A stretch of 46,929 nt of DNA from a virus (Duplodnaviria; Heunggongvirae; Uroviricota; Caudoviricetes). Made by a program: the position numbers and the translations under genes. Shown one piece after another: positions 1 through 35,617 of this stretch. Under the pieces are notes generated by a model that did no database searches, was not told the origin of the DNA, and saw only the letters and a program-made list of their open reading frames with translations. The stretch spans positions 1 through 46,929 of the IMG/VR virus record IMGVR_UViG_2703718815_000012; one strand, 5' to 3'. Each line of letters starts with the position of its first letter. Position 1 is the first letter of the stretch.

Positions 1-459
1 ATGTGTGGACGTTTCTCACAATCAATGACCCGCGATGACTATCTGGCTCTGCTGGCTGATGAATCCGATCGCGATATTCCCTATGACCCTGAACCAATCG
101 GGCGATTCAACGTGGCGCCAGGCACAAAAGTTTTGCTGCTGAGCGAACGTGACGAGCAGCTGCATCTCGATCCGGTGTTCTGGGGTTACGCGCCCGGATG
201 GTGGGATAAAGCCCCATTGATTAACGCACGTGTAGAGACCGCGGCATCCAGCAGAATGTTTAAGCCACTGTGGCAGCATGGCCGGGCGATTTGTTTCGCT
301 GACGGTTGGTTTGAATGGAAAAAGGAAAACGACAAGAAACAGCCCTACTTCATCCATCGTGCCGACGGGCAGCCAATATTTATGGGTCGGAGTTCAAGTA
401 TGATTTTTTATTGTCGTGATGACGAGCGTCAGCGAAATGGTGTAAAGTATTACCGTTAG
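1..459 (+). pseudogene. yedK: yedK 5' fragment (SOS-response-associated peptidase / abasic-site processing protein), disrupted after about codon 128
   Basis: ORF begins MCGRF (catalytic Cys2 of SRAP family) and reads YedK-like to ...GQPIFM (nt ~384), then an unrelated 24-codon tail and stop; full-length YedK is about 220 aa. Confidence 0.7.
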
Positions 460-23858: not shown

Positions 23859-23890
23859 GAAGAAAATGCCATCAGCATGGTGATGGCATT
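23859..23890 (-). terminator. intrinsic terminator after AT-rich moron gene
   Basis: minus strand perfect 10-bp stem AATGCCATCA/TGATGGCATT, 6-nt loop, then TTCTTC; 23 nt after the stop at 23913. Confidence 0.6.
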
Positions 23891-25896: not shown

Positions 25897-25972
25897 TGGT
25901 GCTGATTGACGGAGTTGAACCGCCGACATCCTGCTTACAAGGCAGGCGCTCTACCTACTGAGCTAAATCAGC
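25897..25972 (-). tRNA. tRNA-Thr (anticodon UGU)
   Basis: 76-nt cloverleaf on minus strand: acceptor stem GCTGATT/AATCAGC, D-arm AGCTCAGTAGGTAGAGC, anticodon stem CCTGC/GCAGG with loop CUUGUAA, T-arm GGCGG-TTCAACT-CCGTC, encoded CCA. Confidence 0.85.
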
Positions 25973-28802: not shown

Positions 28803-28992
28803 ACGGCCTCCTTAACGGAAACCGCAGAATGCAGAAAATCGCAGGTGCATTTCTGCATCTGTGACAATGTGAGGAGTTCAGATTGTGGTCGCATTTAAGT
28901 CCCCTTAAATGCGCAGAAGTCACCAATGGGTGTTCAGACCATCAGCAAAGAAAGTATGGACGGTTGATTCAACAAAATCAACTGAAGAGAAA

Positions 28993-29008
28993 GGCCTCCG
29001 GAGAGGCC
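28993..29008 (-). terminator. hairpin after small Cys-rich gene (terminator-like)
   Basis: palindrome GGCCTCCGGAGAGGCC 7 nt from the stop at 29015, followed on minus strand by TTTCTCTTCAGTTGATTTTG. Confidence 0.4.
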
Positions 29009-29014
29009 AATGAG

Positions 29015-29296
29015 TTAGTCGTCCACGCGTTTAAAGCACTGCGGGCAAACATCATTTCCACCGTGTTCTTCGTATGCGCTTTTAACAGCATCAGTCATCT
29101 CTTTAAAGCTTTCGAATAGATGACTACCGTTGCTTTTTTTATAAGCTCCGGCTGCGTATTTGTAGATGTCGGACTCTTCTATGCCCTCATCAACATAAGT
29201 GCCCTCATGATGAGGGCACTGCGTTAAAGCGCCAACCCTACCAAGCATCTCCAATGCCCAACACTCTTGTTTCATGCAAAGTTGATCGATACTCAT
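29015..29296 (-). CDS. hypothetical Cys-rich protein (93 aa)
   Basis: ATG 29296 with AGGAGG SD; Cys spacing ending in CPQC suggests zinc binding; 266-nt AT-rich non-coding spacer upstream. Confidence 0.45.
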   Translation of the reverse strand: MSIDQLCMKQECWALEMLGRVGALTQCPHHEGTYVDEGIEESDIYKYAAGAYKKSNGSHLFESFKEMTDAVKSAYEEHGGNDVCPQCFKRVDD

Positions 29297-34912: not shown

Positions 34913-35617
34913 ATGAAAACATTCGCAGATCGACTCAACGCGGCTATGAGAGCCGCAGGCATATCCCAAGGGCAGCTGGCTGAGAAAGTCGGCATATCTC
35001 AACCTGCAATTCAGAAAATGACATCAGGCAAAACCACAGGCAGCCGTAAGATGGTTGAGCTTGCTCATGCATTGAACGTGCGTCCGGAATGGCTCAGTTC
35101 GGGCATAGGCTCAATGCAGGACGAAGGACGCAAGGACTCCGCTATCCCACCAGAATCGGAATGGGGTAAAGTTGACGCTTGGGATAGCAAAACAGATCTG
35201 CCAGATGACGAGGTCGAAGTGCCATATCTGAAAGATATAGAACTTGCGTGTGGTGATGGTTCCTGCTTGGAAGATGACTATAACGGATTCAAACTTCGTT
35301 TTGCGAAGTCTACCCTTCGTAAGGTGGGAGCCCAGAAAGATAGCGTGCTGTGCTTCCCGGCATCAGGAAATAGCATGGAGCCCATGATCCCGGAAGGGAC
35401 GACGGTCGCCATCAACACGAACGACAAAAAGATCGTTGATGGCAAGGTTTATGCAATAAGCCAGGACGGATGGAAAAGGCTAAAATCCATTTATCGTGTG
35501 AGTCCTACCCGCATCGTGATTCGCAGCTTCAACAGTGAAGAGTACCCAGATGAAGAAGCGGATATCGAGAGCGTAGAGATTATTGGTCGCATGTTCTGGA
35601 CATCTACTATCTGGTAA
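34913..35617 (+). CDS. cI: CI-type repressor (HTH plus LexA-like S24 peptidase domain)
   Basis: N-terminal HTH (ISQGQLAEKVGISQPAIQKM), C-terminal S24 autocleavage domain with Ser in GNSMEP and Lys in WKRLK. Confidence 0.85.
   Translation: MKTFADRLNAAMRAAGISQGQLAEKVGISQPAIQKMTSGKTTGSRKMVELAHALNVRPEWLSSGIGSMQDEGRKDSAIPPESEWGKVDAWDSKTDLPDDEVEVPYLKDIELACGDGSCLEDDYNGFKLRFAKSTLRKVGAQKDSVLCFPASGNSMEPMIPEGTTVAINTNDKKIVDGKVYAISQDGWKRLKSIYRVSPTRIVIRSFNSEEYPDEEADIESVEIIGRMFWTSTIW

Follow-up and report, generated by a model that had tools for sequence, protein, structure and literature searches.

Ahead of the nin genes, some lambdoid phages carry a conserved RNA leader with four covarying hairpins, in which an inverted repeat is incidental

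The attenuators of the trp, his and pyrBI operons combine a short leader open reading frame (ORF), which has its own Shine-Dalgarno sequence (SD), with a hairpin in or just after that ORF and a U-run, in a layout where a closely following ribosome would remove the hairpin. In secM-secA and in mok-hok of plasmid R1, the SD and AUG of the downstream gene are masked, and the upstream ORF reads into or through the hairpin. How does the leader of the nin gene cluster compare with these systems in a virus of the Caudoviricetes, the IMG/VR record IMGVR_UViG_2703718815_000012, which we analyzed over a stretch of 46,929 nucleotides (nt; hereafter the window)? This leader of about 180 nt carries four covarying hairpins (P1 to P4) and a conserved upstream ORF, and it shares the features just named with both kinds of system. 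It departs from the trp and his attenuators in that the peptides inspected, whose N-terminal half is variable, have no regulatory codon run, and in that no antiterminator pairing is conserved; the only competitor of hairpin P3 is an inverted repeat (S1), which is unconserved and lies 3' of the hairpin instead of 5'. Unlike in trp, his and pyrBI, moreover, the terminator score is below threshold, and the leader ORF stops at the initiation codon of the first structural gene. From secM-secA and mok-hok it is set apart by the start of the upstream ORF, which is locked as well (in P2), and by P3 as an additional covarying hairpin inside the ORF; there is no sign in the nin leader of either an arrest peptide like that of secM or an antisense RNA like Sok. 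By analogy, the nin leader would work like the upstream-ORF coupling systems with a masked SD, with a resemblance to leader-peptide attenuators.

Closest of all are three loci in which the same homologous element occupies the same position upstream of a ybcN/ninB-type gene: orf33 of phage 82 (X92588), ylcH of DLP12 in Escherichia coli K-12 and 'IR4' of phi80. Judged by homology, by architecture and by its position directly upstream of such a gene, the leader of the window is the orf33/ylcH element. The records of phage 82, K-12 and phi80 annotate the small ORF, the P2 repeat and putative promoter hexamers, and none of them mentions S1. Neither in these records nor in the literature searched on ylcH, ybcN and ninB leaders, the phi80 genome and phage 82 papers lying outside that search, did we find a description of the leader RNA structure, of P1, P3 and P4, of the covariation or of the coupling logic. 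In lambda, the corresponding place in the pR operon, with the replication or accessory genes on one side and the nin genes on the other, is taken by the tR2 region between ren and ninB, and the window likewise has a tR2-like terminator; however, in lambda everything from tR2 to the ninB SD lies within 73 base pairs (bp), with no promoter-like element, no upstream ORF and none of P1, P2, P3 and P4.

The unit under selection at this locus is the whole nin-cluster leader: promoter-like element, P1, P2, linker, P3 with its U-run, P4 and an ATGA stop-start overlap (Table 1). The inverted repeat S1 within it is real but incidental. A sequence-only reading of the window had described it as 9-bp arms around 12 nt at 28829-28858, in the leader of the nin operon and inside a possible upstream ORF of 31 residues, and all of this is borne out: a repeat search and direct re-reading give arms of 9 nt each at 28829-28837 and 28850-28858, 100% complementary, and the ORF indeed has 31 codons. 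What needs correcting is the distance from the 3' end of S1 to the SD of the first nin gene (GGAGG), which is 17 nt instead of about 30. The local genes are on the minus strand; read on the plus strand, the arms are ATGCAGAAA (28829-28837) and TTTCTGCAT (28850-28858). As RNA, S1 folds at -11.4 kcal/mol in the sense orientation (z = -4.4, a value reached by 0 of 200 shuffles) and at -10.8 kcal/mol in the antisense orientation (z = -2.6). Taken as sequence alone, it does not exceed chance: five sites across the whole window hold 11 seeds of perfect 9-bp inverted repeats whose loops measure 3-20 nt, and the expectation for 47 kb is 3.95 +/- 2.8 from first-order random sequences, or 3.2 analytically. 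The same chance test found two more perfect inverted repeats with arms of at least 9 bp, at 23865-23890 and 35408-35443.

Which helix is maintained at this site? About 150 related copies were compared overall. One set was collected with a degenerate pattern over the hairpin, which yielded 35 true copies from 185,579 species genomes (Enterobacter, Citrobacter, Klebsiella/Raoultella, Leclercia, Siccibacter, Pseudescherichia and other genera); for a second set, the pattern was anchored only 3' of the hairpin, leaving the hairpin itself free, and gave at least 119 loci in viral contigs. Chance pattern matches (L022, L027, L029 and L105) and a truncated locus (L028) were left out. In the ungapped core alignment of 51 columns and 33 distinct sequences, 90.6% of the S1 cells are paired, against a column-shuffle mean of 90.7%, and 500 of 500 shuffles reach the observed value; not one pair is changed on both sides, and there are no doubly changed cells. 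The two central pairs of S1 are broken in 9 and 10 of these 33 sequences, whenever the 5' arm changes, and in the second set they are kept in 37/56 and 28/56 distinct sequences among the matches listed. For the overlapping hairpin P3, by contrast, 98.3% of the cells in the 33 sequences are paired, with three pairs changed on both sides and 23 doubly changed cells, which none of 500 shuffles equals, and nine of its pairs are kept in 53-56 of the 56 sequences listed from the second set. P3 was also recovered unprompted by RNAalifold on the full leader. Thus, the suggestion that S1 is a regulatory stem-loop, for which a lack of conservation together with marginal folding energy had been named as the refutation, survives in part: the energy is good, the sequence is conserved and a conserved, regulatory-looking RNA hairpin does stand at the site, but the pairing of the proposed 9-bp helix is not conserved and shows no compensatory change, and it is P3 that covaries instead.

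The variation in P3 is extensive. Its upper stem occurs as UGCA/UGCA, UGGC/GCCA, UGGC/GUCA, UGAC/GUCA, UGCU/AGCA and UGCU/GGCA, its lower stem swaps CAG/CUG for CCG/CGG, and its loop is mostly GAAA, with GAAG, GAGA, GCAA, UAAC, UAGC, UAUC, GUCC, ACAC and UUCU as alternatives. The compensatory changes are non-synonymous, replacing Q by A, T, L or P and C by A, V, S or G, and G-U pairs are seen in the sense orientation only. Two internal A-C mismatches are conserved, their positions being paired in just 3/56 and 1/56 of the second-set sequences listed, and the outer one stays open though a single synonymous change could close it. Because the compensation alters amino acids, the G-U pairs are confined to the sense orientation and the A-C oppositions are kept unpaired, the constraint is on the sense-strand RNA, not on the peptide or on duplex DNA. 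One divergent copy (L068) has a longer upper stem through a 9-nt in-frame insertion.

P3 has an energy of about -9 to -10 kcal/mol, and an RNA that ends at the end of P3, folded alone as during transcription, forms it at -10.1 kcal/mol. P3 and S1 are mutually exclusive, and in Klebsiella-type copies S1, at -3.0 vs. -12.9 kcal/mol for P3, cannot form. S1 is a by-product of two adjoining conserved features of the sense RNA, since its 5' arm consists of the 5' half of P3 with the GAAA loop, and its 3' arm is supplied by the U-rich tract after P3. In the set in which this tract was free to vary, alignment columns T35 and T40 are invariant and T36 and T37 are conserved to at least 90%; the phage 82 equivalent is UUUUUUUGCAU. 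S1 itself is therefore of little consequence, an accident of a hairpin beside a U-run, and the site provides a worked example in which folding energy alone picks the wrong helix and comparative data are needed for the right one.

P3 lies within the upstream ORF, which is homologous to orf33 of phage 82 and ylcH of K-12. The ORF is open and in frame in 42/42 copies of the first set and present in 107/108 of the unbiased set, with a length of 31-33 codons in 104 of those. A GGGA or GGGGA stands 6-8 nt upstream of its ATG in 107/108 distinct leaders, and its stop overlaps the next start as ATGA or GTGA in 141/145 copies. The distance from its ATG to P3 is 30, 33, 36 or 42 nt, all multiples of 3. 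The peptide is unconserved in its N-terminal half, commonly contains the motif DFLHSA and has no match among Pfam or NCBIfam families. Its start codon is enclosed in hairpin P2, with a folding energy of -13.3 kcal/mol (z = -5.5): in 143/143 distinct copies the AUG is base-paired, through more than a dozen different stems, and in a register-fixed test 91.7% of P2 is paired, with a shuffle maximum of 70.2%. P2 is the repeat labeled 'IR4' in phi80 and 'possible regulator-binding site' in phage 82. Between P2 and P3, 62 distinct linkers belonging to several unrelated sequence classes have on average 35% A, 35% C, 8% G and 22% T, against 26.5% G in the downstream gene; with so little G and so much C, the linker is therefore kept unstructured and C-rich. 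At the 3' end of the leader, P4 is equally stable in three sequence classes unrelated to one another (-16.0, -16.4 and -15.8 kcal/mol) and buries the SD and the start codon of the first nin gene in all of them; it is predicted by RNAalifold unaided and has 13-14 doubly changed sequences at three pairs.

Table 1. Features of the nin-cluster leader and its surroundings in the window (window coordinates)
Feature	Position	Strand	Description
tR2-like intrinsic terminator	28993-29008	-	GGCCTCTCCGGAGGCC then TTTCTCTTCA; after the ea8.5-like ORF; upstream boundary of the leader (terminator scan)
Promoter-like element	28953-28981	-	-35 TTGATT (28981-28976), 17-nt spacer, -10 CATACT (28958-28953)
Hairpin P1	28920-28948	-	Conserved loop UCUGAACAC (28938-28930); family loop consensus (Y)CUGARCA(M)C
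Hairpin P2	28890-28913	-	CGCATTTAAG-GGGA-CTTAAATGCG; SD-like GGGA in the loop, AUG of the upstream ORF (28894-28892) in the 3' arm
Upstream ORF, 31 codons	28799-28894	-	MRPQSELLTLSQMQKCTCDFLHSAVSVKEAV; its TGA overlaps the start codon of the first nin gene as ATGA
Linker	28865-28889	-	G-poor and C/A-rich; gap between P2 and P3; variable 5' half of the upstream ORF
Hairpin P3	28839-28864	-	UC-A-CAG-A-UGCA [GAAA] UGCA-C-CUG-C-GA; covariation; overlaps the 5' arm of S1
S1, reported inverted repeat	28829-28858	-	Sense: ATGCAGAAA (28858-28850), TGCACCTGCGAT, TTTCTGCAT (28837-28829)
U-rich single-stranded tract	28827-28838	-	UUUUCUGCAUUC; between P3 and P4; supplies the 3' arm of S1
Hairpin P4	28802-28826	-	UGCGGUUUCC-GUUAA-GGAGGCCGUA; buries the SD GGAGG (28811-28807), reaches the AUG of the first nin gene
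First nin gene, YbcN/NinB(Orf) family, 151 residues	28347-28802	-	Followed by ninE, a NinI-like phosphatase gene and ninG

What, then, could be the function of this arrangement? We consider a translational gating of the first nin gene via the upstream ORF, with P3 possibly acting as a pause or attenuator hairpin, to be the most likely one, with a probability of roughly 60%. A hairpin of -16 kcal/mol over SD and AUG should block independent initiation, and we therefore propose translational coupling, in which the first nin gene would be translated only after the ribosome on the upstream ORF has melted P4 and terminated on the start codon. Initiation on the upstream ORF would itself be throttled by P2. 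P3, which appears weak by design with its two conserved A-C mismatches, lies roughly 28 nt inside the ORF with a U-run behind it, a geometry that equals that of pause or attenuator hairpins in leader-peptide operons. It would most plausibly be a co-transcriptional pause hairpin or a weak attenuator, which the leading ribosome removes, keeping transcription and translation in step. The elemental pause consensus is G-10/Y-1/G+1. In the window, G(28842), U(28833) and G(28832) fit it, a weak agreement that is expected about once in 32 positions. More speculatively, the G-poor, C-rich linker could be exposed to Rho if the ORF is untranslated, which would add polarity to the translational block. In DLP12, adequate expression of the operon behind the leader is reported to depend on a promoter brought in by an insertion (PMC4118853); this silence is compatible with a gene-silencing leader, and equally with an inactive promoter.

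Several observations weigh against the gating model. The conserved loop of P1 is left unaccounted for by it. As an intrinsic terminator, P3 is below threshold, and K-12 Term-seq lists a 3' end after P1 and none after P3, a weak point as the U-run is degenerate in K-12 (CAAUUCUUU). Furthermore, both collection patterns were derived from the element itself, such that conservation near the anchors is inflated. Finally, S1 competes with P3 in energy in the window: in a 51-nt context S1 has -9.7 kcal/mol (-12.1 kcal/mol with three inner pairs) vs. -9.1 kcal/mol for P3, and S1 is present in the minimum-energy fold of the leader, so that S1 may form at equilibrium in the lineage of the window.

Could S1 then be functional there, for instance as a conformer alternative to P3 that switches after transcription? 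Its energy and z-score, its choice in the minimum-energy fold and its mutual exclusion with P3 speak for it, as do the C-to-U substitutions in the 3' arm of phage 82 and phi80, which retain G-U pairs. However, such C-to-U changes are equaled in number by pair-breaking ones, and one of them is a synonymous change of a Leu codon; compensatory changes are absent; and the pairing is lost (-3.0 kcal/mol) in variants from Klebsiella, Raoultella, Pseudescherichia and Siccibacter, which differ in P3 but keep the 3' arm of S1. The 3' arm is conserved even in lineages without a partner for it, and we hold a role of S1 as a stem-loop to be very unlikely. Still less credible, to the point of being negligible, is S1 as a DNA site for a dimeric regulator, the protein-binding palindrome of the sequence-only reading. 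The palindrome is perfect over 9 bp, and the phage 82 record speculates that a regulator binds a repeat close by, though the one meant is P2 and not S1. The half-sites are not co-conserved, as the 5' arm varies without a matching change in the 3' arm (the central pairs being kept in the 37/56 and 28/56 listed sequences given above); the conserved feature tolerates G-U pairs, which are A-C mismatches on the other strand, as well as arbitrary loops; S1 lies within a translated-looking ORF and, by an estimate from the coordinates, some 95-115 nt downstream of the promoter-like element; and about three such 9-bp repeats are expected per window by chance.

Alternatively, P3 with its U-run could be a true intrinsic terminator or attenuator, at which transcripts from the promoter-like element would end as an RNA of about 110-120 nt (P1-P2-P3), and read-through would require a ribosome following closely on the upstream ORF, or a polymerase that arrives antiterminated from pR, much as in the pyrBI leader. 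A covarying stem with a free loop and an immediate U-run is the usual signature of a terminator, phage 82 has as many as seven U's behind the stem and a score close to 0, a consensus scan chose a terminator-like site at P3, a constitutive-looking promoter just ahead of the genes that lead to Q would need a block, and the DLP12 operon is silent without an added promoter. Nevertheless, we regard this as rather unlikely. The d'Aubenton-Carafa score of P3 is negative in most variants, with -19.7 in the window, -6.2 in Klebsiella and -0.5 in phage 82, whereas lambda tR2 reaches +25; on this score a canonical terminator was rejected for P3 as well as for S1 (-51.9). The stem base is weak, with a conserved A-C mismatch, a transcript cut off within the upstream ORF would make a non-stop message, and the K-12 Term-seq data have no 3' end after P3, though this is tempered by the degenerate K-12 U-run. 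Improbable, in our view, is that the conservation reflects a functional small protein of a YlcH/orf33 family, or merely a recombination 'linker' at a mosaic boundary, with the hairpins being secondary. The ORF is conserved in frame and DFLHSA is common, and the leader stands between unrelated upstream genes and at least three downstream classes, with about 98% identity despite differing flanks. Yet the N-terminal half of the peptide is unconserved, its central residues change with the RNA pairs, the SD and P4 determine its C-terminal residues, and it has no match among protein families; four covarying hairpins, moreover, are predicted by neither coding constraint nor recombination. A phage-specific antiterminator site of the nut/boxB or put kind was judged unlikely, as the P3 loop is not conserved and the element is common to phages with different flanking modules, a judgment that includes no comparison with the put sequences of HK022.

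Upstream of P2, the leader begins with the promoter-like element. Alignment of its relatives shows that the hexamers and their spacing of 17 nt are conserved, with a spacer that is variable in sequence. The -10 consensus of the family is CATAAT, relatives having CATAAT, GATAAT or TATAAT; the pattern TTGNNN-16..18-NATAAT occurs in 100/108 distinct leaders, and the spacer measures 17 nt in 89/91. The window copy of this predicted promoter is below the threshold of a consensus scan, and the same hexamers are annotated as a putative promoter in the phage 82 record X92588. A palindrome, TTGATT-N6-AATCAA at 28981-28964 (minus strand), covers the -35 hexamer and part of the spacer. It is found in most E. 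coli- and Enterobacter-type copies, Klebsiella-type copies keeping just the TTG of the -35 hexamer, and could be an operator or a fortuitous similarity. The tR2-like terminator that bounds the leader on its upstream side scores +14.4 in the window vs. +25 for lambda tR2, and is preceded by an ea8.5-like ORF (29389-29015), which matches the Pfam family Lambda_ea8_5 and itself precedes the leader. A terminator upstream of the leader is not a universal feature, a strict search having found one in 37/138 distinct upstream regions.

P1 folds at -7.9 kcal/mol in the window. Across the family, the same loop is closed by many different stems, and in the register-fixed test P1 is paired to 85.8%, with a shuffle mean of 57.4% and a maximum of 62.8%. 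P1-type hairpins stand two or three in tandem in three prophages. In the prophage leaders L013:2395-2490(-), L017 and L032 from Pseudescherichia and Escherichia sp., three tandem hairpins follow a TATAAT box in place of the single P1, with the CUGAACA-type loops CCUGAACAAC, UCUGAACAAC and CCCGAACAGCC. Because the tandem hairpins repeat this type of loop, its sequence suggests a putative binding motif for some factor. A search of the window for a trans partner of the loop found matches to its complement at chance level, with 8 vs. 9.7 expected. In K-12 MG1655, Term-seq detected a low-abundance 'orphan' RNA 3' end at 572349/572350 on the plus strand (Adams et al., 2021; PMC7815308, supplementary files 1 and 3). 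These positions correspond to L009:649-650, 19 nt upstream of ylcH and 5-6 nt past the P1 stem (…CUCCGGUGACUUCUG), and could mark where transcription terminates, where an RNA is processed or where a very short transcript made close to the promoter ends.

Downstream of the leader, the gene called ninB in the sequence-only reading is a NinB-type family gene at the nin position, but it matches the YbcN subfamily PRK09741 (E = 1.4e-79), and against Pfam NinB it scores 22.9 bits, just under the threshold of 23.8 bits. In other phages, at least three classes of first gene follow the leader: the YbcN type, and genes whose products start with MKQQF… or MKQHY…, one of these being annotated as NinB in HK639. 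Since the same leader precedes at least three classes of first gene, it is, on the sequence evidence, a portable module at a mosaic junction.

The leader is common to phi80, HK225, HK639, phage 82, several lambda-like coliphages and Enterobacter phages, and occurs in many Enterobacter, Klebsiella and Citrobacter prophages. The window's copy is 77-99% identical to those of phage 82, phi80, HK225, HK639 and Enterobacter phages. Between phages with differing flanks, such as HK639 and Klebsiella KO-TP1, the leader is about 98% identical, and recombination probably explains its spread between flanking modules. A 47-bp core around S1 is still recognizable in Klebsiella phages and is found in 3021/5426 complete E. 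coli genomes, usually once in each, as the DLP12 ylcH-ybcN locus, such that a DLP12 remnant of the leader is carried by more than half of them. In Rfam 15, nothing in the window except a transfer RNA (tRNA) reaches the gathering score; seven leader variants have no match at E <= 1, and the region in the window gives only spurious matches (E = 2.5-9). What stands at this locus is a conserved, uncurated RNA leader of a known general kind.

Where would such a leader matter? It lies at the entry of the early right operon into the recombination (nin) genes, en route to the late activator Q. If it gates nin and Q expression, lysis timing and recombination functions would be affected in these phages, and the silent rusA operon of DLP12 could be explained. 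A more far-reaching and, to us, doubtful possibility is that, in some lambdoid phages, the leader constitutes a regulatory RNA complete in itself that stands before the nin/Q block, with a constitutive promoter, a gate of four hairpins and a P1 loop bound by a trans factor. In that case, passage through the gate would be granted only with a co-transcriptionally loaded pioneer ribosome or to an antiterminated polymerase from pR, and the invariant P1 loop (CUGAACA) would be a putative binding site for a host protein, Hfq or an RNA. The leader would then form a second checkpoint ahead of Q and lysis, one that relies on neither N nor put, and might also yield a small prophage RNA in lysogens. Known small RNAs of prophages do not correspond to it, HnrS being located in the late genes and the EcOnc anti-sRNAs (directed at small RNAs) at the moron site downstream of pR'.

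A type I-E array of clustered regularly interspaced short palindromic repeats (repeat GGTTTATCCCCGCTGGCGCGGGGAACAC; L025:5507-5539, Enterobacter sp. BIGb0383, NZ_RJKQ01000002.1) carries the spacer TTGTCACAGATGCAGAAATGCACCTGCGATTTC, which matches P3 and its flanks, being identical to the 'GATTTC' variants and agreeing with the window at 32/33 positions. Therefore, a host has targeted this conserved segment of the leader. Elsewhere in the window, a tRNA-Thr gene (anticodon TGT) lies at 25897-25972 on the minus strand, downstream of the nin/ninG region. A dense repeat cluster at 29182-29220, within the ea8.5-like ORF, contains the perfect palindrome GTGCCCTCAT/ATGAGGGCAC, with a direct copy of TGCCCTCAT 15 nt upstream of it, and gave rise to a spurious Rfam match to mir-327.

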